NCBI RefSeq assembly: GCF_016026235.1
Contig: NZ_CP065613.1
Strand: one strand, 5' to 3'
DNA from: Escherichia coli
GTDB taxonomy: Bacteria; Pseudomonadota; Gammaproteobacteria; Enterobacterales; Enterobacteriaceae
Length of the DNA stretch: 64,000 nucleotides
The notes below the pieces were generated by a model. The model was not told the origin of the DNA, ran no database searches, and was given only the letters and a program-made list of their open reading frames with translations. Numbering within the stretch: the first letter of the stretch is position 1; each line of letters opens with the position of its first letter. Below are positions 2,439 to 58,995 of this stretch, one piece after another. The position numbers were made by a program, and so were the translations under genes.

Positions 2439-2527
2439 ATCGTTACCCTTTTTCAGGCAATAGTTGGCCCTGACCGAAGCGGCCAATTTTATTTTTGTCG
2501 TTATTTACACCGCGGTTTCGCATTCAT

Positions 2528-17054: not shown

Positions 17055-17066
17055 CACGCTACCGCC
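17055..17066 (-). promoter_or_regulatory. ops element (RfaH recruitment site) within a JUMPStart-type leader upstream of wza
   Basis: Plus strand reads CACGCTACCGCC, so the minus-strand transcript carries GGCGGTAGCGTG, the ops consensus, about 180 nt upstream of the wza start codon. Confidence 0.7.
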
Positions 17067-17534
17067 CCTGGCTTTTTAGCTACCAATACACTGATTTAGA
17101 TTAATTTTTCAAACCCTCTCTGCATACAATCGTTGATGAGAAAGGGTTATTGCGGAAATTAACTTCCGAATATAAGGTGACATTATGGTAATTGAATATT
17201 GGCTCTCCAATAATGCAGGAGGAAGTGTTACAGCTAACGGAATAGCAGGCAAGGTAACAATTCGGCAATTGGCTATTTTTAAGAATTATATTAAGTGTCA
17301 TTCAATATGGTTTTTAGGAGTTTCTTTAGGTTGACAATATTTAATATTGCGCCTCCACATGCGATATTTCTTAAATAATGTTTTATTATTACCACTTTTA
17401 ATTCAGGGATAATGTGAGGTTATTACCCTCAAATAATATGAGATAAATAGTGCTGCAACATTGCATTTTTTCCCCGATTTATCCATGATCGAATTGTGAC
17501 ATTTGTCATACAACGAATAGGTTTTGTACTTACT

Positions 17535-31953: not shown

Positions 31954-32134
31954 AAGAAATCCTTTCTTAGAGAATTATTGAGGTCCGGTATCATACCGAC
32001 TGCAATAATGAAATAAGAGCAAACGAAGAAACTTTCAGAATTAGTCCCGGCGGCGCAGAAAATTTTGCTATTCGCCTCGCAAGAACGGAGAGCCGTCGAT
32101 TGACACTAAGGGCGGAGTGACATAATTTCAGGAG

Positions 32135-32278
32135 TGAGGGTTAGGGAGAGGTTTCCCCCTCCCCCTGGTGTTCTTAGTAAGCCTGGAAGCTAATCACTAA
32201 GAGTATCACCAGTATGATGACGTGCTTCATCATAACCCTTTCCTTATTAAAAGCCCTCTTCTCCGGGAGAGGCTTTCC
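32135..32278 (+). ncRNA. sibA: SibA antisense sRNA (type I antitoxin); coordinates approximate
   Basis: Sigma70-like promoter TTGACA(32100-32105)-17-TAATTT(32123-32128); transcript region fully antisense to the ibsA ORF; imperfect hairpin plus T-rich tail near 32251-32278. Confidence 0.6.
32174..32233 (-). CDS. ibsA: Ibs-family type I toxin peptide (19 aa)
   Basis: Minus-strand ORF ATGATGAAGCACGTC... translates to MMKHVIILVILLVISFQAY; too short for the ORF track. Confidence 0.65.
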   Translation of the reverse strand: MMKHVIILVILLVISFQAY

Positions 32279-32492
32279 CGTTTCAGCGTCCCGCTGAAAT
32301 CATCGGCTTACCTCCTTTCGCCCTGAATGCAGTCTATCGCTAACGCGTGAATAAAATAGTTTCCTCTGTGATTATTGCGTAACGACTCGCAAAGAATATT
32401 TGCTGGCAGGATCGCAGACTACAAAGCCTACGGATTGACAATCTTATCGTGAAGGCATACTTTCAGGAGTGAGGGTAGAGCGGGGTTTCCCC

Positions 32493-33786
32493 CTGAGGAA
32501 TCCCCAGAAAACAAGACAGGCATAGTGAGATGTGATCTAATTGATTGTGCTAACAATTTCAAGGAGATCACCACTATGCCTGCACGTTCATTATGCCAAA
32601 ATTTCCTTAACAACATACTGGCCCCTTTGCATCTTTACCGTCAAAAATCACTGATTGACGCAACTAATGCTGTAATAAATGGCGCTTCCCTCACACTTAC
32701 CAGTATCGGGCGTCATTTAACCGGTACGGCATCAGTTAAAAACAAAATAAAGCGGGTGGATCGACTGTTGGGGAATCGACATTTGCAAAATGAGGTTTCC
32801 ACCATTTTTCAGCGAATTACCCAAAAGATTACGCGGGGAATGTCTCGTGTTGTGATACTCATTGACTGGAGTGCTTATCATGCCTCTCGTTTTCAGCTTT
32901 TGCGGGCAAGCCTGGCATGTGACGGGCGTTCTTTACCGTTGATGAGTTGTGTCGTTCCATCATCACAGACAGCGAATGCAGATGTACATGAGCGTTTTCT
33001 GGAATCGCTTGCTGAGTGCTTTTCCCCCGGGACTGATGTCATTGTTATTACAGATGCCGGTTTTCAGGGGCGATGGTTCCAACAGCTCCGCTCCCGTGGC
33101 TGGACCTATATTTGCCGGGTACTGGGCAATCATTATTACAATGTTGGTAATGGCTGGGAAAAGGTGTCGGACTCAGGCACAAAAGCATCAACGACAGCAA
33201 TTTATTTAGGTGAAGGCCTGCTGGGTCGAGATAAAAATGCACAACATGAAGGGCATTTTTATCTTTATAAAAGTAAGCCTAAAGGTCGTAGATTTAAACG
33301 CTCGAAGGAAAGAGCAACCAGACCATCGGTGACGGCTAAAGCTCGTACTGCCGGGAAATCACCATGGTTTATTTTCACAAACAGTACTGAGTTCTCGCCA
33401 AAACAGGTAATGAAATTATACAGCCGTAGAATGCAAATTGAGCAAAATTTCAGGGATGAAAAAAATCCTCGCTGGGGATTTGGACTACGGTTTGGTGCCA
33501 GTCATTCATCCGGGCGGGTCACGGTATTGAGTCTGATCGCAACATTAGCCAGTATCATTATGTGGTTAAGCGGTTTCAGTCTGGAAAACAAAGGGATACA
33601 TCATAAATATCAGGCAAATACAGTGAAGCACAGGCGAGTCATCTCGTTATTAAAACTGGCGGAGAATGTGATTCGACATTCTCCACTCATACTAAACACA
33701 CTGTCACTTGACGCAGGGCTGAAAGTTCTACAGCAACGGTATACCAATATGATAATGGTTTACTAAATTTTCTGGGGATCCCTCAG
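32493..33786 (+). mobile_element. IS10-like insertion sequence (IS4 family), copy 1, 1294 bp
   Basis: Imperfect terminal inverted repeats CTGAGGAATCCCCAGAAAAC / CTGAGGGATCCCCAGAAAAT; flanking direct repeat GGGTTTCCCC (32483-32492 and 33787-33796; 10-12 bp depending on end assignment); encodes an IS10-like DDE transposase. Confidence 0.9.
32525..33766 (+). CDS. IS4-family (IS10-like) DDE transposase
   Basis: 413 aa; recognisable similarity to the IS10 transposase (KRVDRLLGNRHL, YSRRMQIEQNFRDEKN, HKYQANTVKHR); alternative start at MPARSL (32576). Confidence 0.9.
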   Translation: MRCDLIDCANNFKEITTMPARSLCQNFLNNILAPLHLYRQKSLIDATNAVINGASLTLTSIGRHLTGTASVKNKIKRVDRLLGNRHLQNEVSTIFQRITQKITRGMSRVVILIDWSAYHASRFQLLRASLACDGRSLPLMSCVVPSSQTANADVHERFLESLAECFSPGTDVIVITDAGFQGRWFQQLRSRGWTYICRVLGNHYYNVGNGWEKVSDSGTKASTTAIYLGEGLLGRDKNAQHEGHFYLYKSKPKGRRFKRSKERATRPSVTAKARTAGKSPWFIFTNSTEFSPKQVMKLYSRRMQIEQNFRDEKNPRWGFGLRFGASHSSGRVTVLSLIATLASIIMWLSGFSLENKGIHHKYQANTVKHRRVISLLKLAENVIRHSPLILNTLSLDAGLKVLQQRYTNMIMVY

Positions 33787-33912
33787 GGGTTTCCCCCGCC
33801 CTGGTAGCCTTAGTAAGCTGGCCAGCTAATGACTAAGAGCACCACGATGATGAGTAGCTTCATCATGACCCTTTCCTTATTTATGGCCCCTTCCTCGGGA
33901 GGGGCTTTCCCG
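33787..33912 (+). ncRNA. sibB: SibB antisense sRNA, 3' portion; promoter and first ~25 nt are separated by the IS (5' fragment about 32465-32492)
   Basis: Second copy of the Sib repeat unit: promoter TTGACA(32435-32440)-17-TACTTT(32458-32463), then the IS, then the remainder antisense to ibsB, ending in a hairpin plus T tail near 33885-33912. Confidence 0.55.
33810..33866 (-). CDS. ibsB: Ibs-family type I toxin peptide (18 aa)
   Basis: Minus-strand ORF translates to MMKLLIIVVLLVISWPAY. Confidence 0.65.
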   Translation of the reverse strand: MMKLLIIVVLLVISWPAY

Positions 33913-45281: not shown

Positions 45282-46707
45282 TAATGCCAGTCAGTTAAGC
45301 AACTGACTGGCTCTTTTTCGGGGCTGTGGGGTATTTCCAGGGCCTCTCCTTTACCACTCTCGGGAAGGCCCTTCCCCTTCTCGTCGGTAATTTCACAAGT
45401 TGTCCCATACTTGCAAGATCGCGCATCAGCTCCGGTATACGTCCCGGTGAAGCGCCCTGCAATGTCATCAGCATTCTCATCACCATTCCGCATGATTCTG
45501 AGAAACTCAGTTGATTCGGCCAGTAACCTTTCAGATGTTCCGCCATTTTAATCATCTGATATCTCACCAGATTATAAGCCAGTAAGACACCCCACAGCTC
45601 TTGCTCCACAAGCTCCGGCTTTTTACTTCTCAGCGTCAGCCTGCTCAGTTGCATCGTCTGTTTTATCTCCCTGTATCCCAGTTCGATTTCCCAGCGATGA
45701 CTGTACAGATCCGCCATTTCTCCTCCGGGGAAGCGCATGGCGTCCGTCATCGACGTCAGCAGATGGCAGACTTTTCCTTTGCGCGTCACGGTCAGCAGGC
45801 GGGCTGTCACTTCATTTCCCAGTCCCGGCCACTTTTTTCGTGCCTGCGGGCTGGTTTTCAGCTTCACCAGATGATCGCCTTTACCCAGTTTTCTGAGCTC
45901 TTCATATTGCGCTCCCTTTCTGAGAGGTATCATCCAGTGGCGGTGTTCTCCCGCCAGGCTCCAGGCATTTAACAGTCCCAGTGAGTAATAACCTTTATCC
46001 ATTAACGTCAGAGTGTTATCGCCGGTTTGTTCTATAAGTTGCTCAGCAAGCTCATTTTCGCTGTTCTTCATCGTGCCGAAGGCTGCAGCCGTCAGCAGAT
46101 GGCTGGTCAGTTCCATCTGGCAGACCATTTTGACCTGCGGGTAGAGCGCCGGGTTCCCGGCATGTGTCTGGCGGGGGAAGGCTGCATCGTTCTCTGGTGT
46201 ATCCGGTGTGCGCCAGAACACACCATCGATGGCCAGCAGGGTCAGGCCGCACCAGTGCGGATGCGGCGTGGCGTTATGCCAGAGCTGCGCTGTTTTCGTG
46301 AACACGCGGCGGACAGCCTCACTTCCCAGGCGCTGGCGGGCCTGAATAACGGCACTGGGGGCAACGAAGGGGCGATTGCCCGGCAGCATGATGTCCAGGC
46401 GATTCACAATCTGGTGAAGAGGTTCTTTACGCTCAAGCGCCATGCCAACAATACACCAGACCATCATTTCGAGGGGAAGACGGCGCTTGCGTAGCGTTAC
46501 AGTACCTGATTCGGCAAGGCAACGAGAGATGAGTTCGGGGTCGAGGTAATCCCCCAGAGAAGTCAGTGGGTTACGCAGAGAATCGTAACGGGATACCAGA
46601 TCAAGAGCCTGTCCAATGTGCATAAAAAAATCCGGAAACAAGTGAGCGTTTCCGGATTCTTACACAGCCACTGGATCGGTCAACTGATCCTTAACTGATC
46701 GGCATTA
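45282..46707 (-). mobile_element. IS4 insertion sequence, 1426 bp
   Basis: 18-bp imperfect terminal inverted repeats TAATGCCAGTCAGTTAAG / TAATGCCGATCAGTTAAG; 12-bp target-site duplication CACCTTTAGATG at 45270-45281 and 46708-46719; length matches IS4. Confidence 0.93.
45295..46641 (-). CDS. insG: IS4 DDE transposase
   Basis: 448-aa ORF (likely start at [13 protein letters not shown]); DDE motifs [30 protein letters not shown]. Confidence 0.92.
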
Positions 46708-49407: not shown

Positions 49408-49439
49408 CAGCTGCATTTATTAAGGTTATCATCCGTTTC

Positions 49440-49526
49440 GCTGAAAAACATAACCCATAAAATGCTAGCTGTACCAGGAACCACCTCCTTAGCCTGTGTA
49501 ATCTCCCTTACACGGGCTTATTTTTT
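49440..49526 (+). ncRNA. cyaR: CyaR (RyeE) sRNA
   Basis: Sequence GCTGAAAAACATAACCCATAAAATGCTAGCTGTACCAGGAACCACCTCCTTAGCCTGTGTAATCTCCCTTACACGGGCTTATTTTTT matches CyaR as recalled; terminal hairpin plus T6. Confidence 0.9.
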
Positions 49527-51388: not shown

Positions 51389-52168
51389 CTACACCGTAAT
51401 TAATTTCACCCGTGTCTTCTGCAATGCCAGTTTATCCACCTCAGACACAGCATCATCGGTAATAATAATGTCAATTTTTTCGATTGGCAGTACCTGATTA
51501 AAACCGCGACGGTTAAATTTCGATGAATCGAGAACGGCAATCACTTTATTAGCGGCTGTGACCATCGCACCGCTAACGGAATAACCCTCATTAAAGGTCG
51601 TAATACCATTAACCGCATCAATACCATCAGCACCGACAAACATTAAATCGGCATTAATATCCTGCAGGGAACGTTCAGCAATAGATCCATGCATAGATCG
51701 CGTTTTATGGCGGACCGTGCCACCGCAGACGACCAGAGTAATGTCTTTATTTTCGGAAAGGGCAAACGCAGCCGGGAGACTGTTGGTAATCACCGTGATA
51801 TTTTTGGCGGTCATTAATCCTTCGGCGATAAGCATTGTGGTACTTCCGCTGTCGAGAATAACGGTCATCCCTTCATGGATCATTTTGACTGCCGCCTGCG
51901 CTATTCTGTTTTTCGGCGCGCTGGCGAGCTGAAATCGCTCTTTAAACCCGACTTCCTGGGTCTCGGTTTCACTATTACCGGACATTATTTTCGCCGCACC
52001 GCCATGAAAGCGCGTAACCACGCCTTTTTGTTCGAGAAAGCGCAAATCGGCACGGATTGTCGCTTCCGAGGCAGCAAATACTCCCGCCAGATCCTGAACA
52101 AGCACGGTTCCCTGTTCATTCACTAATTGGATGATCTTATTCCTTCGCTCGAATGAATTCATCGTCAT
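51389..52168 (-). CDS. gatR: DeoR-family repressor of the galactitol operon (intact)
   Basis: 259 aa; N-terminal HTH and C-terminal DeoR sugar-binding domain; uninterrupted here. Confidence 0.88.
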   Translation of the reverse strand: MTMNSFERRNKIIQLVNEQGTVLVQDLAGVFAASEATIRADLRFLEQKGVVTRFHGGAAKIMSGNSETETQEVGFKERFQLASAPKNRIAQAAVKMIHEGMTVILDSGSTTMLIAEGLMTAKNITVITNSLPAAFALSENKDITLVVCGGTVRHKTRSMHGSIAERSLQDINADLMFVGADGIDAVNGITTFNEGYSVSGAMVTAANKVIAVLDSSKFNRRGFNQVLPIEKIDIIITDDAVSEVDKLALQKTRVKLITV

Positions 52169-52267: not shown

Positions 52268-53308
52268 TCAGGGAATGAGCAACACTTTGCCCGGCATGGC
52301 ATTACGAGCGATGTCACGCACCGCCTGGGCGAAGCTTTCAAAGCTTCCACGGTGAGCGATTAATGGCTCCAGGCTTAACTTACGTTCTGTCAGCAACCGG
52401 CTCGCCGTTTCCCACTCCTGCCCCGGCCAAGGGCTGGAGTAGTTCATCCAACTGCCGATAACCGTCAGCTCTTTACGCAATATTTTGCCAAACGTTGCCG
52501 ATGTTAAATGCAGATCCTGATGCAACGTGCCCACCAGCGCCAGTTGGGCATGAGGACCGGCAATCTCTACCGCCAGTTCGACAGTTTGCGGTACGCCAGC
52601 CGTCTCGAGGATAAGCTGATTAAAGCGCAGTTCGCGTAAAACGCTCTGCATTTGCGGCGCGCTCATTTCGCTACTGTTAAATGTTTGCATCGCACCGAAA
52701 GATTTTGCCAGTGCCAGTTTTTCTGAGCTAATGTCGATAGCCGTCACACTCTTTGCTCCCAGCGCGACAGCGCACTGAATAGCCAGCAGGCCAATGGTTC
52801 CGGCACCAATAATAATAACGTTTTTATTCTCACAACCTTGCGCTAAATGAAAAGCATGCAGTCCAACGGTAATCGGCTCAATAAAAGCCCCATCCTCAAT
52901 AGGCATATCCGTGGGTAGAGCAAAGACATTTTTTCGCTTAACGACAATATATTCAGCAAATCCACCATCACGCCGCGAGCCAATAAAATCATATTTTGCG
53001 CACTGGGAATAAAACCCTTTCAAACACTCTGGACAAGTAAAACAGGGTAATAACGGCACACAGGCAACCGCATCGCCAAGGTGTAAATCATCAACACCGG
53101 ATCCCACCGCATCAATATAGCCGCTAAATTCATGGCCTAACGTTATTGGATAATAATGTGCACCATTTTTAAATATCCTGGGTAAATCGGAACCACATAA
53201 GCCCGAGCTGGCAATTTTTACCCGTACCTCATCCTGATGTTTAATTTCAGGAATGACGCTTTCTGCAACGCGCACGATACCATCAGTATCATTCACCACT
53301 GATTTCAT
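52268..53308 (-). CDS. gatD: Galactitol-1-phosphate 5-dehydrogenase (Zn-dependent)
   Basis: 346 aa; Zn-ADH motifs GHEFSG and GAGTIGL. Confidence 0.92.
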   Translation of the reverse strand: MKSVVNDTDGIVRVAESVIPEIKHQDEVRVKIASSGLCGSDLPRIFKNGAHYYPITLGHEFSGYIDAVGSGVDDLHLGDAVACVPLLPCFTCPECLKGFYSQCAKYDFIGSRRDGGFAEYIVVKRKNVFALPTDMPIEDGAFIEPITVGLHAFHLAQGCENKNVIIIGAGTIGLLAIQCAVALGAKSVTAIDISSEKLALAKSFGAMQTFNSSEMSAPQMQSVLRELRFNQLILETAGVPQTVELAVEIAGPHAQLALVGTLHQDLHLTSATFGKILRKELTVIGSWMNYSSPWPGQEWETASRLLTERKLSLEPLIAHRGSFESFAQAVRDIARNAMPGKVLLIP

Positions 53309-53340
53309 AAAAACTCCTGATTGTTAAGGGGGATAAACTC

Positions 53341-54634
53341 CTGAGGAATCCCCAGAAAACAAGACAGGCATAGTGAGATGTGATCTAATTGATTGTGCTA
53401 ACAATTTCAAGGAGATCACCACTATGCCTGCACGTTCATTATGCCAAAATTTCCTTAACAATATACTGGCCCCTTTGCATCTTTACCGTCAAAAATCACT
53501 GATTGACGCAACTAATGCTGTAATAAATGGCGCTTCCCTCACACTTACCAGTATCGGGCGTCATTTAACCGGTACGGCATCAGTTAAAAACAAAATAAAG
53601 CGGGTGGATCGACTGTTGGGGAATCGACATTTGCAAAATGAGGTTTCCACCATTTTTCAGCGAATTACCCAAAAGATTACGCGGGGAATGTCTCGTGTTG
53701 TGATACTCATTGACTGGAGTGCTTATCATGCCTCTCGTTTTCAGCTTTTGCGGGCAAGCCTGGCATGTGACGGGCGTTCTTTACCGTTGATGAGTTGTGT
53801 CGTTCCATCATCACAGACAGCGAATGCAGATGTACATGAGCGTTTTCTGGAATCGCTTGCTGAGTGCTTTTCCCCCGGGACTGATGTCATTGTTATTACA
53901 GATGCCGGTTTTCAGGGGCGATGGTTCCAACAGCTCCGCTCCCGTGGCTGGACCTATATTTGCCGGGTACTGGGCAATCATTATTACAATGTTGGTAATG
54001 GCTGGGAAAAGGTGTCGGACTCAGGCACAAAAGCATCAACGACAGCAATTTATTTAGGTGAAGGCCTGCTGGGTCGAGATAAAAATGCACAACATGAAGG
54101 GCATTTTTATCTTTATAAAAGTAAGCCTAAAGGTCGTAGATTTAAACGCTCGAAGGAAAGAGCAACCAGACCATCGGTGACGGCTAAAGCTCGTACTGCC
54201 GGGAAATCACCATGGTTTATTTTCACAAACAGTACTGAGTTCTCGCCAAAACAGGTAATGAAATTATACAGCCGTAGAATGCAAATTGAGCAAAATTTCA
54301 GGGATGAAAAAAATCCTCGCTGGGGATTTGGACTACGGTTTGGTGCCAGTCATTCATCCGGGCGGGTCACGGTATTGAGTCTGATCGCAACATTAGCCAG
54401 TATCATTATGTGGTTAAGCGGTTTCAGCCTGGAAAACAAAGGGATACATCATAAATATCAGGCAAATACAGTGAAGCACAGGCGAGTCATCTCGTTATTA
54501 AAACTGGCGGAGAATGTGATTCGACATTCTCCACTCATACTAAACACACTGTCACTTGACGCAGGGCTGAAAGTTCTACAGCAACGGTATACCAATATGA
54601 TAATGGTTTACTAAATTTTCTGGGGATCCCTCAG
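53341..54634 (+). mobile_element. IS10-like insertion sequence (IS4 family), copy 2, 1294 bp
   Basis: Same element as copy 1, with at least two single-base differences (offsets 121 and 1087); flanking direct repeat GGATAAACTC (53331-53340 and 54635-54644). Confidence 0.9.
53373..54614 (+). CDS. IS4-family (IS10-like) DDE transposase
   Basis: 413 aa, protein identical to the copy-1 transposase. Confidence 0.9.
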   Translation: MRCDLIDCANNFKEITTMPARSLCQNFLNNILAPLHLYRQKSLIDATNAVINGASLTLTSIGRHLTGTASVKNKIKRVDRLLGNRHLQNEVSTIFQRITQKITRGMSRVVILIDWSAYHASRFQLLRASLACDGRSLPLMSCVVPSSQTANADVHERFLESLAECFSPGTDVIVITDAGFQGRWFQQLRSRGWTYICRVLGNHYYNVGNGWEKVSDSGTKASTTAIYLGEGLLGRDKNAQHEGHFYLYKSKPKGRRFKRSKERATRPSVTAKARTAGKSPWFIFTNSTEFSPKQVMKLYSRRMQIEQNFRDEKNPRWGFGLRFGASHSSGRVTVLSLIATLASIIMWLSGFSLENKGIHHKYQANTVKHRRVISLLKLAENVIRHSPLILNTLSLDAGLKVLQQRYTNMIMVY

Positions 54635-54659
54635 GGATAAACTCCCCCTCAGTTAAAAA

Positions 54660-56015
54660 TTATTCTGCGAGAACGGCTTTCTCTTGTTTAATAAAACCAC
54701 GCGCTCTACGCCAGGTAATGAAAATACCGGTCAGATAAATTGCGCCGATAATAATGAAACCGGGAATATTTTGCGGGGAGAAAACCTGAATCAGTAACCA
54801 GGTAATGGGAGAACCGCCCTGATCCATTGAAGCCACCATACCCCCGGCTTTTAACGCCCCAGCATTAGCCGCCAGTTGGGTGTGCAAACCAATAGTTTGC
54901 GTCGCGATCCACAGAGTGATGCTCATGATGATGACACCCGAGATTAAGGTGCGGAACAGATTTCCACGATGCACGGCGACTGCCATCGCCACAAAGAAGC
55001 CGATGGTGGCAAGATCGCCAAACGGCAGCACCTGATTACCCGGAACACAAACAGCAATTAAAATGGTGAGCGGGATAAAAATCAGGCTTGCCGATACCAC
55101 CGCCGTATGCCCCAGCAGTAATGCGGGATCCAGGCCAATCAGGAACTCCTGACCGCCGAACTTCGCCTGTAAACGACTACGGGCCTGCTTAGCGATGGGC
55201 GTTAAACCATCCATGATGGGTTTAATCACCCGTGGCATTAGCAGCATCACTGCCGCCGTTTTTACCGCCAGCTGCAATACACCTTTGACATCGTAACCCG
55301 CGAGGATGCCGATAATCAGCCCCATCACAAAACCCACGGTGACAGGCTCGCCAAATGGACCAAATTTGCGCTGAATATCGTCGGCGCTAAATTTAATTCG
55401 GTTAACGCCTGGGATTTTCTCGATGATAGCATCGACCAGCACCGCAATCGGCCCCATATACGCCGACGTACCGTGCGGAATAGCAATACCTTCCAGCTCA
55501 AAGAAATTTCGGGTATCGCGGGCAAACCAGTCGCCGAGCTTATAAACAAACGCCGCGTGAATTACCACACCTGCCATCCCTATCATCCATGAACCGGTTG
55601 CCAGATGCAGCAACGCGCCGGTGAAGGTCATATGCCAGATATTCCAGATATCAACATTTACCACCCGCGTCATACGGGTCAGTAACATCGCCACGTTAAC
55701 CAGAATCGCAATCGGAATCGCCACCAGCGCAATTTGCGACGCCCAGGTCATTGGTGAAGAGCCCGGCCAGCCGACATCGACCACATGCAGATTCAGGTCG
55801 AAATTTTCCGCCATCGCTTTCGCCGCCGGACCAATGGAATCCAGCATTAAGCCAATCACAAGGCCAATGCCAACAAAGCCAATCCCGATATGCAGACCCG
55901 CTTTAAAGCAATCGCCTGCCTTCATGCCTAATATTTTAGAAAAAATAATGATGACAATCGGAAGCATCACCGTAGGGCCGAGGTCGAGAATATAACGCAT
56001 GACTTCTGAAAACAT
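54660..56015 (-). CDS. gatC: PTS galactitol-specific EIIC
   Basis: 451 aa; polytopic membrane protein. Confidence 0.92.
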   Translation of the reverse strand: MFSEVMRYILDLGPTVMLPIVIIIFSKILGMKAGDCFKAGLHIGIGFVGIGLVIGLMLDSIGPAAKAMAENFDLNLHVVDVGWPGSSPMTWASQIALVAIPIAILVNVAMLLTRMTRVVNVDIWNIWHMTFTGALLHLATGSWMIGMAGVVIHAAFVYKLGDWFARDTRNFFELEGIAIPHGTSAYMGPIAVLVDAIIEKIPGVNRIKFSADDIQRKFGPFGEPVTVGFVMGLIIGILAGYDVKGVLQLAVKTAAVMLLMPRVIKPIMDGLTPIAKQARSRLQAKFGGQEFLIGLDPALLLGHTAVVSASLIFIPLTILIAVCVPGNQVLPFGDLATIGFFVAMAVAVHRGNLFRTLISGVIIMSITLWIATQTIGLHTQLAANAGALKAGGMVASMDQGGSPITWLLIQVFSPQNIPGFIIIGAIYLTGIFITWRRARGFIKQEKAVLAE

Positions 56016-56018
56016 AGG

Positions 56019-56303
56019 TCACCCCTGTAAGATAGTCAGAATTTTATTTTGTAATGCTTCGATACCGACACCAGAAATAAAAGGCATGCCGTGAACTAAC
56101 GGAATATCGCCAAAACTACGATCCACTTTGGCAGTGGTGCATATCAAATGCACACCATCCATATAGGTTTCTATTTCATTAACCCGACACTGGATTAATT
56201 CAACAGGAATATTATGATTCTGACACAACTCTTTAATTTCTTCTGCCGCCATCGTAGAGGTCGCAACCGCGCCTCCGCAAGCGACAATAATCTTGCGTTT
56301 CAT
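56019..56303 (-). CDS. gatB: PTS galactitol-specific EIIB
   Basis: 94 aa; [16 protein letters not shown] with phospho-Cys. Confidence 0.92.
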
Positions 56304-56333
56304 AAATAGTCCTTTTTATTGTTACAGAGGGAT

Positions 56334-56786
56334 TTATTCGTCTGAATCTAAAACATACTTTGTGAAGTATTCCTTTAACTGGGTTTCAGGAAGAGTGATT
56401 AGTGTCTCGACGATATCGGGCTGTTGTAACTTGCCAAATAAACAGCGTAAAAGTTTCAATTGCTGCTGCGGATTTTCCACAATCAACGCAATAACCAACG
56501 ATACCTCCACGTCGTTATCATCATCCGCTTGCTGAAAATGAACTTTATTTGTTGGCCTTAACAGATAAATGGCTGACGACTTAGCATGAATCGCCTCACA
56601 ATGCGGTATTGCAATGGCGTGCTGCTCAAGCATTATCCCGGTAGGGAATTCTGCTTCTCTGGCAATTAATGCCTGTGGCCAGGTATCATGAACCACACCT
56701 TTGGCGAGCATCTCATTACCGATATGGGTTAAAACTTCGCTACGATCGACAAAAGAAATTCCGCTACGAACAAACAGGTTAGTCAT
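56334..56786 (-). CDS. gatA: PTS galactitol-specific EIIA
   Basis: 150 aa; EIIA (mannitol/fructose type). Confidence 0.92.
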   Translation of the reverse strand: MTNLFVRSGISFVDRSEVLTHIGNEMLAKGVVHDTWPQALIAREAEFPTGIMLEQHAIAIPHCEAIHAKSSAIYLLRPTNKVHFQQADDDNDVEVSLVIALIVENPQQQLKLLRCLFGKLQQPDIVETLITLPETQLKEYFTKYVLDSDE

Positions 56787-56795
56787 ATACCGTCC

Positions 56796-58995
<2,200 letters not shown>

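Follow-up and report, generated by a model that had tools for sequence, protein, structure and literature searches.

Among the systems closest to the locus described here is IS10: its antisense RNA comprises 69 nt with a 35-nt overlap with the mRNA and a 3' end at nt 47, and a Dam site overlaps the -10 region of the pIN promoter (PMC5006887). Outward promoters of IS10 have been reported to switch on adjoining genes (PMC4574204). The closest named relative of the element found here is ISSfl1, an IS4-family element of the Shigella flexneri virulence plasmid. In the literature that we searched, ISEc60 itself was mentioned only in two resistance surveys, and the insertion reported below was not described. 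The galactitol (gat) locus is a known target of insertion sequences. When E. coli K-12 evolved in the mouse gut, all of the sequenced clones gained a mutation in gat; IS insertions accounted for 79% of these mutations, and the ancestor was inhibited by galactitol (PMC3945185). An earlier note on this DNA stated that K-12 carries an IS3 in gatR, and the annotation of K-12 JM83 agrees, showing the gatR homologue split by IS3 and, in addition, an IS4 in gatY. The gatYZABCD genes are reportedly co-transcribed, as Nobelmann and Lengeler are said to have found in 1996.

We analyzed a window of 64,000 nucleotides from Escherichia coli, in which an IS of 1294 bp lies between gatC and gatD (Table 1). 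The earlier note had placed this IS at coordinates that all hold, and its geometry was also correct: all gat genes run in one direction, on the minus strand, and the transposase-proximal end of the IS faces gatD. Reading the sequence directly, we found 32 bp between this end and the gatD ATG (53306-53308, minus strand), 10 of which belong to the target-site duplication, and an undamaged gatD ribosome-binding site, CAGGAG (53319-53314), as previously claimed. The opposite end is located 25 bp from the gatC stop codon (54660-54662). In E. coli 300709, the uninterrupted gatC-gatD spacer measures 47 bp, equal to 32 + 25 - 10, and the alignment with this empty site, a comparison that the earlier note had proposed, confirmed the 10-bp duplication GGATAAACTC. 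The site, the size, and the duplication of the insertion are confirmed to the base.

Table 1. Features of the gat locus and of the two ISEc60 copies in the window.
Feature	Position	Strand	Remarks
ISEc60 copy 1	32493..33786	+	duplication GGGTTTCCCC; within Sib/Ibs repeat
gatR, DeoR-family repressor, intact	51389..52168	-	259 aa from first ATG; 257 aa per NCBI
gatD, galactitol-1-phosphate 5-dehydrogenase, intact	52268..53308	-	346 aa; NF007642
Target-site duplication GGATAAACTC, left copy	53331..53340	.	alignment with empty site of strain 300709
ISEc60 copy 2 (IS4 family, 1294 bp)	53341..54634	+	gatC-gatD spacer; boundaries set by empty-site alignment
Left terminal inverted repeat CTGAGGAATCCCCAGAAAA	53341..53359	+	like IS10 outside end; without GATC
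Candidate pIN-like transposase promoter, AAGACA-17 nt-TCTAAT	53361..53389	+	Dam site GATC (53382-53385) over -10
Candidate RNA-OUT-style antisense RNA hairpin	53364..53431	-	spans transposase ribosome-binding site and start codon
Transposase gene, antisense to gat	53424..54614	+	396 aa; NF033591; start and length as in NCBI WP_001111632.1
Candidate pOUT-like outward promoter, extended -10 TGgCATAAT	53438..53446	-	reads toward gatD
Terminator-like hairpin, 11-bp stem, tail CAGUUUUAAU	54507..54534	-	consensus scan
Right terminal inverted repeat CTGAGGGATCCCCAGAAAA	54616..54634	-	like IS10 inside end; GATC at 54625-54628
Target-site duplication GGATAAACTC, right copy	54635..54644	.	alignment with empty site of strain 300709
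gatC, galactitol PTS subunit IIC, intact	54660..56015	-	451 aa; TIGR00827
gatB, gatA, gatZ, gatY, intact, promoter-proximal	56019..58941	-	ORFs of 94, 150, 420, 284 aa

The presence of two near-identical copies 21 kb apart within the window could point to an assembly or scaffolding error, in which a repeat copy was misplaced into the gatC-gatD junction. We regard such an error as next to impossible. The 10-bp duplication is clean and corresponds to the exact empty-site sequence, and the two copies can be told apart, differing at 2 of the 1294 positions. Moreover, the junctions at gat recur in a public assembly of independent origin, which is 100% identical over 9 kb, and this rules out an assembly artefact; the assemblies with identical junctions include a short-read contig that stops within the IS past the junction it shares. 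For both copies in the window, an 11-bp or 12-bp duplication with a shorter IS was also conceivable, as each target begins with G and has a C after it. We excluded this reading at the right end by the sites in ampH-iprA, mscL, mppA, and one plasmid, and at the left end by the homology to ISSfl1, where the C is not provided by the flanking sequence.

Near-identity to named copies identifies the element as ISEc60, and the transposase profile, the inverted repeats, and the target duplication place it in the IS4 family. Over all 1294 bp it shares 99.9% identity with 11 records annotated as "IS4-like element ISEc60 family transposase", and by tblastn a copy on plasmid NZ_CP011417.1 encodes a transposase with 100% identity. 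The transposase matches the NCBIfam model NF033591 (transpos_IS4_2) with 360 bits (cut-off 152), covering positions 1-339 of the 340 in the profile. Pfam DDE_Tnp_1 is also recorded for this protein, and its gene is preceded by the ribosome-binding site AAGGAG at 53409-53414. The 19-bp inverted repeats match at 18 of 19 positions, and both ISSfl1 and a Salmonella relative share the left terminus. The ISEc60 copies of the enteroinvasive strain (EIEC) CFSAN029787, FDAARGOS_943, and others have the same termini, transposase, and 10-bp duplications, differing in the insertion site alone.

The earlier note had called the element IS10-like, a term acceptable for its architecture but not for its identity. 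ISEc60 and IS10 share CTGA..ATCCCC-type termini of which only the transposase-distal one contains a GATC, a GATC over the putative -10 region of the transposase promoter, a long predicted hairpin that overlaps both the ribosome-binding site and the start codon of the transposase gene, a minus-strand -10 hexamer (a candidate in ISEc60) at about the same offset from the ATG, and a symmetric target preference. However, IS10 comprises 1329 bp and generates 9-bp duplications, whereas all eight distinct ISEc60-type sites have 10-bp duplications, and the left untranslated end of ISEc60 is about 24 nt shorter, with the ATG at IS nt 84, compared with nt 107 for the copy of IS10A. The transposase shows only 36% identity to those of IS10A and ISVsa5 (93% of the protein covered), compared with 52% to that of ISSfl1. 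ISSfl1 also has the same left terminus as ISEc60, carries the conserved hairpin, in which compensatory changes occur, and shows TGaCATACT where the pOUT-like site lies. It is nevertheless a distinct element, and the single copy read has an apparent duplication of 9 bp, CCTGAAGGG.

The left end of ISEc60, which faces gatD, resembles that of IS10 in its layout. The hairpin has a predicted folding energy of -37.8 kcal/mol (z = -6.5), reached by none of 200 shuffled sequences, and UCUUGUUUUCU (53363-53353) follows directly on its 3' side. Across five related IS elements, 97% of the cells in the alignment pair, compared with 25-41% in slid controls, and two pairs changed on both sides, a small sample of covariation from five sequences. 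The Rfam search of the region returned no match to RNA-OUT (RF00240) down to E = 5, nor any other credible match, while the same model detects the genuine IS10A at 85.9 bits and places its RNA-OUT from ATG+7 down to IS nt 46. The pOUT-like hexamer is located at ATG+14..+19, and the -10 of IS10A at ATG+15..+20, both inside the transposase gene. It reads CATAAT or CATACT in all five relatives, but this conservation is ambiguous because the site overlaps the coding sequence. In the opposite direction, AAGACA-17 nt-TCTAAT is a candidate transposase promoter in the pIN position. A consensus promoter scan reported no promoter at the left end of ISEc60; we did not count this result as evidence, because the scan likewise fails to detect either pIN or pOUT in genuine IS10A. 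An outward transcript would immediately meet the strong, conserved hairpin and UCUUGUUUUCU, so that read-out into gatD from the pOUT-like site may be weak.

All seven gat reading frames, from gatR through gatY, are intact, and their content and order agree with the annotations of 300709, CFSAN029787, and K-12 JM83. Each Gat protein differs by 0-3 amino acids from those of 300709 and CFSAN029787, and gatB, gatA, gatZ, and gatY are almost identical to their annotated counterparts in three E. coli strains. The intact gatR of 259 codons noted before is borne out by its reading frame; the protein matches DeoR-family models and is one residue off WP_001295426.1. GatD scores 726 bits with the equivalog model NF007642 (cut-off 550), and GatC, which has the same sequence as its 300709 counterpart, scores 711 bits with the subfamily model TIGR00827. 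The single difference between GatD and WP_000844219.1 is L77 for P77. We considered whether L77 reflects decay after the insertion and rejected this, since the allele also occurs in empty-site genomes.

The locus is the one repeatedly struck by IS elements in K-12 (JM83; PMC3945185), but those insertions break coding sequences or the repressor gene, whereas ISEc60 resides in an intergenic spacer. All proteins are intact, and the insertion can act only via transcription, by polarity or by promoter replacement. ISEc60 lies between co-transcribed genes, the 32 bp downstream of it leave no room for a promoter, and it probably cuts gatD off from the gatY promoter. The consensus scan, which misses the IS10A promoters as mentioned, found no promoter-like site in these 32 bp. 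The best hybrid promoters that we could pick by eye on the minus strand at the IS-gatD junction (TTCCTC-17-AACAAT and TTGTTT-17-AGTTTA) were rejected as poor and as starting inside the ribosome-binding site.

To reach gatD, transcripts from the gatY promoter would have to extend through 1.35 kb that is not translated and lies antisense to the transposase gene. In the gat direction, the longest stop-free stretch of the IS does not exceed 78 codons. About 100 nt inside the IS, these transcripts would reach the terminator-like hairpin at 54507..54534, with a predicted energy of -17.4 kcal/mol (z = -4.6) and a weak U-run. C exceeds G in 68 of 99 composition windows in this direction, and such stretches could load Rho, a guess from base composition. 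Finally, 20-25 nt before the IS end, the RNA-OUT-like hairpin and its U-tract could form a terminator-like block. With untranslated RNA, hairpins, and possible Rho loading, induced gatD expression should drop sharply. Whatever gatD mRNA is left would stem from read-through or from the pOUT-like extended -10; expression from the latter would be weak and constitutive, without control by GatR. Our best inference is polarity on gatD, with ISEc60 itself contributing weak constitutive expression at most, and we consider it rather likely that galactitol-induced gatD expression is strongly reduced in this way by the insertion of ISEc60 into the hairpin native to the spacer (see below). The strain would be expected to grow on galactitol (dulcitol), or to form acid from it, late or not at all. 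Its growth might also be inhibited by galactitol, since GatABC would continue to produce galactitol-1-phosphate.

Tn10 and IS10 insertions in operons are strongly polar, which speaks against a nearly neutral insertion, with read-through and outward transcription from the IS together supplying enough GatD to ferment galactitol, perhaps more slowly. The 1.35 kb of untranslated RNA within an operon are a classic setting for Rho-dependent polarity, and the -37.8 kcal/mol hairpin with its U-rich tail close to the IS end also argues for reduced expression. Even so, the seven gat reading frames have stayed intact across a lineage of several assemblies, the gatD ribosome-binding site is not only intact but also unstructured, and neither of the two IS hairpins is a textbook intrinsic terminator by the rules of the scan. 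Neighbouring genes are also expressed from the outward promoters of IS10 (PMC4574204). We hold near-neutrality to be possible, if on the doubtful side.

The insertion site itself is structured, a feature absent from the earlier note, as is its recurrent targeting. At the empty site, a native hairpin, UGAGGGGGAGUUUAUCCCCCUUA, with a 9-bp stem fills most of the 47-bp gatC-gatD spacer. ISEc60 landed in the loop and destroyed the hairpin: the predicted folding energy of the spacer changes from -16 kcal/mol at the empty site to -3.7 kcal/mol after insertion, no better than that of shuffled sequences. In FDAARGOS_943, whose chromosome has 38 places matching ISEc60, the element resides in the same gatC-gatD hairpin in the opposite orientation, with the duplication AGGTTATCCC and a 1-bp offset. 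This insertion is independent of the one in the window, and the second hit in the same hairpin marks a target hot spot. Three lineages likewise have an insertion at the sib target GGGTTTCCCC of the other copy in the window, with both orientations represented. The eight distinct ISEc60-type sites take the form GGG-(A/T-rich)-CCC. ISEc60 thus favours 10-bp targets in which G-rich and C-rich flanks enclose an A/T-rich core, and this preference makes the gatC-gatD hairpin a hot spot. A strict pattern, GGGWWWWCCCC with up to one mismatch, does not capture the gat site; the consensus is therefore loose, and we describe it qualitatively.

These observations might be taken further. ISEc60 could be an element of the IS10 group that targets hairpins or palindromes of the type GGG-(A/T)4-CCC and whose outward promoters take over the expression beyond it. 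The repeated landing in small intergenic stem-loops, at gatC-gatD in two lineages and both orientations and in the Sib repeats in three lineages, would fit such a behaviour. The left end would then drive constitutive, GatR-independent gatD expression, and the right end would provide a replacement promoter for the decapitated Sib antitoxin RNA. Insertions would rewire expression predictably and not act as simple knock-outs. We judge this extended proposal rather unlikely.

Recurrence at one locus also raises the question of selection, as losing or uncoupling galactitol catabolism could be advantageous in the gut, so that the insertion was favoured and not merely tolerated. The IS-driven gat mutations of K-12 in the mouse gut (PMC3945185), the gatY::IS4 of JM83 in addition to its gatR::IS3, and the independent hit in FDAARGOS_943 are in line with such an advantage. 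However, target preference explains the recurrence at least as well, given that the sib repeats are equally recurrent, and the finding in K-12 hinges on gatR::IS3 making gat expression constitutive, while the gatR in our window is undisrupted. Among 5080 complete genomes carrying the region, the junction is uninterrupted in 5056, and only 24 have an interruption of any kind within 250 bp of it. Selection for the insertion thus seems very unlikely to us.

If the polarity on gatD holds, the lineage would make GatYZABC upon induction but little GatD. It would then be expected to be dulcitol-negative or galactitol-sensitive, a character that serves in biotyping, and the insertion would be a natural parallel to the IS-driven gat loss in gut-evolution experiments. 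As its repeated hits show, ISEc60 is strongly selective for its targets, and this helps to predict its landing sites in the few lineages in which it is expanding, such as EIEC CFSAN029787 and FDAARGOS_943. The insertion is an event of an ordinary kind, and the understanding of IS biology and of the gat operon is unchanged by it. The exact insertion, with the same site and orientation, occurs in none of 5426 complete E. coli genomes, and we found it identically in at least three draft assemblies (GCA_031665325.1, GCA_014155105.1, and GCA_008180225.1), which makes it a lineage marker. Within this lineage all gat genes, including gatD, are intact, consistent with a recent insertion or with continued use of the pathway.

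The galactitol genes gatYZABCD lie co-directionally on the minus strand, and a 1294-bp insertion sequence between gatC and gatD physically separates gatD from gatYZABC by 1.35 kb, a layout that an earlier note had described and that the sequence and the ORFs confirm. The element, the second ISEc60 copy of the window, has the termini CTGAGGAATCCCCAGAAAA and, as the reverse complement of the other end, CTGAGGGATCCCCAGAAAA. In the alignment with the uninterrupted gatC-gatD junction of E. coli 300709, our empty-site reference, GGATAAACTC occurs once in 300709 but twice in the window (53331-53340 and 54635-54644), as anticipated for a 10-bp target duplication. Where the native spacer measured 47 bp, 32 bp now lie between the element and gatD and 25 bp between it and gatC; the ribosome-binding site of gatD, CAGGAG, is unaltered, as had been read from the sequence, and no promoter-like site was found in the 32 bp left between the element and gatD. 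NCBIfam models matched GatD (726 bits), GatC (711 bits), a DeoR-family GatR, and an IS4-family transposase (360 bits), and the gatR gene is intact as claimed. Each of the seven gat proteins is full length; they differ by 0-3 residues from those of 300709 and the EIEC strain CFSAN029787, and by up to five (GatY) from those of FDAARGOS_943.

Coordinates (window positions) of the features discussed in the text
Feature	Position	Strand	Remarks	Basis
gatD	52268-53308	-		sequence reading and ORF listing
gatC	54660-56015	-		sequence reading and ORF listing
ISEc60 copy 2	53341-54634		1294 bp, between gatC and gatD	sequence reading
Transposase ORF	53424-54614	+	396 aa	ORF listing
Candidate extended -10, TGgCATAAT	53446-53438	-	upstream of left-end hairpin	read from sequence
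Promoter-like TCTACA-18 nt-GATAAT	54575-54604 (copy 2); 33727-33756 (copy 1)	+		consensus match only
SIB_RNA, intact	32100-32248		149.5 bits	Rfam
SIB_RNA, weaker match	33749-33881		72.3 bits; starts inside IS right end	Rfam
CyaR	49438-49523	+		Rfam gathering threshold
algC RNA motif	2443-2492	-		Rfam gathering threshold
JUMPstart element	17055-17093	-		Rfam gathering threshold

The element had been called IS10-like, which holds for the architecture of its left end but not for its identity. Copy 2 is 99.9% identical over its full length to copies annotated by NCBI as "IS4-like element ISEc60 family transposase" and differs at two positions from copy 1 (32493-33786). Because its transposase shares 52% identity with ISSfl1 but only 36% with IS10A and ISVsa5, the element is not IS10; it also duplicates 10 bp at 8 of 8 distinct readable sites, whereas IS10 duplicates 9 bp. 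Of 5426 complete E. coli genomes, only 14 contain ISEc60 at full length. Among these 14, matching chromosomal places number 6 in CFSAN029787 and 38 in FDAARGOS_943, and RMDEC332, RMDEC364, and VL46 carry 7-10 each. The large CFSAN029787 plasmid pCFSAN029787_01 (NZ_CP011417.1 65558-66971) bears two copies near-tandem, the duplication GGGATTTACC after one copy leading directly into the left end of the next.

At the empty site, the gat-sense RNA is predicted to form UGAGGGGGAGUUUAUCCCCCUUA, a hairpin with a 9-bp stem (-16 kcal/mol) located after the gatC stop codon and ahead of the gatD ribosome-binding site. Copy 2 entered at its loop and abolished the structure. An ISEc60 has also entered this hairpin in FDAARGOS_943, with the transposase gene co-directional with gat, opposite to the window, a duplication (AGGTTATCCC) offset by 1 bp, and a SNP in the loop; it is an independent event. 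The target GGGTTTCCCC at the sib locus is likewise occupied in the window, twice in CFSAN029787, and, with the element reversed, in FDAARGOS_943, in backgrounds differing by 1-2% from the window. The eight duplications (GGGATATCCC, GGGTTTCCCC, TGGTTATCCC, AGGTTATCCC, GGGATTTACC, GGGTAGGCCC, GGGACAATCT, and GGATAAACTC) share a loose, symmetric pattern of G-rich and C-rich flanks around an A/T-rich core, so that target preference explains the repeated gatC-gatD hits. This hot-spot behavior is modestly interesting. In FDAARGOS_943 (NZ_CP065615.1 385000-430000), an IS66 element interrupts the sib-region ISEc60, and mdtD is frameshifted. GatY, GatC, and GatR have accessions in the WP_1979xxxxx range there, like other strain-specific proteins of that strain, which might mean that its gat alleles are private and under relaxed selection.

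Copy 1 (within 32440-33881) interrupts the gene for a Sib antitoxin RNA, roughly 50 nt downstream of the gene's 5' end, and seems to leave intact the cognate ibs toxin ORF of the opposite strand. In CFSAN029787, the 10-bp target of copy 1 is occupied in two adjacent repeats. The promoter-like TCTACA/GATAAT pair reads outward from about 30 nt inside the right end of the element. In copy 2, its transcript would be antisense to the gatC 3' end; in copy 1, the site would drive transcription into the antitoxin remnant and could replace the lost promoter.

Among complete genomes, 5080 include the gatC-gatD junction, which is uninterrupted in 5056, and none of the complete RefSeq E. coli genomes has the insertion of the window. 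Looking up the window's GatD allele as an exact protein match retrieved the identical arrangement in at least three assemblies: GCA_031665325.1 (100% identity over 9041 bp), GCA_014155105.1 (one indel), and GCA_008180225.1, in which the contig ends inside the element, past the same junction. Since these assemblies are independent, the insertion is real and marks a lineage. It was correctly observed and is ordinary in kind: a known element at a preferred target in a well-known operon. GatD carries Leu77 (codon at 53078-53080), as opposed to Pro77 in three comparison strains. Decay after the insertion was ruled out as its origin: the public collection contains this allele in 35 blocks, some with the element and some, from empty-site genomes, without it. 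Leu77 is thus a polymorphism of the lineage with no connection to the insertion.

Transcripts from the gatY promoter would enter ISEc60 antisense to its transposase gene. In this direction, no frame across the element stays open beyond 78 codons, C exceeds G in 68 of 99 windows, a hairpin with an 11-bp stem and a weak U-run is predicted about 100 nt inside by consensus scan and folding, and a conserved hairpin with a U-tract lies 20-25 nt short of the exit. Taken together, these features make strong polarity on gatD likely.

The conserved hairpin belongs to a left end that, judged by sequence, resembles that of IS10 in its layout, a second modestly interesting point. The element has IS10-type termini, and only the transposase-distal one contains GATC. 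Another GATC lies over a plausible transposase-promoter -10, TCTAAT, with AAGACA 17 nt upstream, much as the Dam site of IS10 overlaps the -10 of its transposase promoter pIN (PMC5006887). The minus strand at 53431-53364 is predicted to fold into a long hairpin (-37.8 kcal/mol, z = -6.5) spanning both the ribosome-binding site and the start codon of the transposase gene and followed by UCUUGUUUUCU. When it is aligned with four relatives (ISSfl1, a Salmonella plasmid element, and two ISEc60 variants of 82-85% identity), pairing is kept in 97% of cells versus 25-41% with partners slid, and two pairs are changed on both sides.

The proposed outward promoter toward gatD now has a concrete candidate by analogy, TGgCATAAT, because its hexamer lies 14-19 nt inside the transposase gene, compared with 15-20 nt for the -10 hexamer of IS10A. 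The Rfam model of the antisense RNA-OUT covers ATG+7 down to IS nucleotide 46 of a genuine IS10A copy; the same model does not recognize ISEc60. A consensus promoter scan reported none in the ISEc60 left end, a negative of no weight because it also missed pIN and the outward promoter pOUT of IS10A, both experimentally established. A transcript from the candidate would at once meet the terminator-like structure.

On this basis, a clear defect in galactitol use seems the probable outcome. Near-normal use through leakage is rather unlikely. Any gatD expression driven by a pOUT-like promoter would not depend on GatR and would be both weak and constitutive. Outward promoters of IS10 are reported to activate neighboring genes (PMC4574204), but RNA-OUT itself ends inside IS10 (PMC5006887). 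Positive selection of the insertion, to which we give most of the small probability left by these two outcomes, recalls K-12 evolving in the mouse gut, where every sequenced clone gained a gat mutation, 79% of them IS insertions (PMC3945185); that case, however, depended on constitutive gat expression, and gatR is intact in the window, as in the three non-K-12 strains examined. The IS3 that the earlier note named in K-12 gatR is present in the JM83 annotation, along with an IS4 in gatY.

Another IS4, at about 45282-46707 in the baeR-yegP spacer, is 99.2% identical to the JM83 gatY IS4; compared with CFSAN029787, its flanks overlap by 12 bp, which would fit an IS4 target duplication, and strain NN5 shares the arrangement. 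CyaR, the algC RNA motif, and the JUMPstart element fit the Escherichia coli chromosomal identity of the region.
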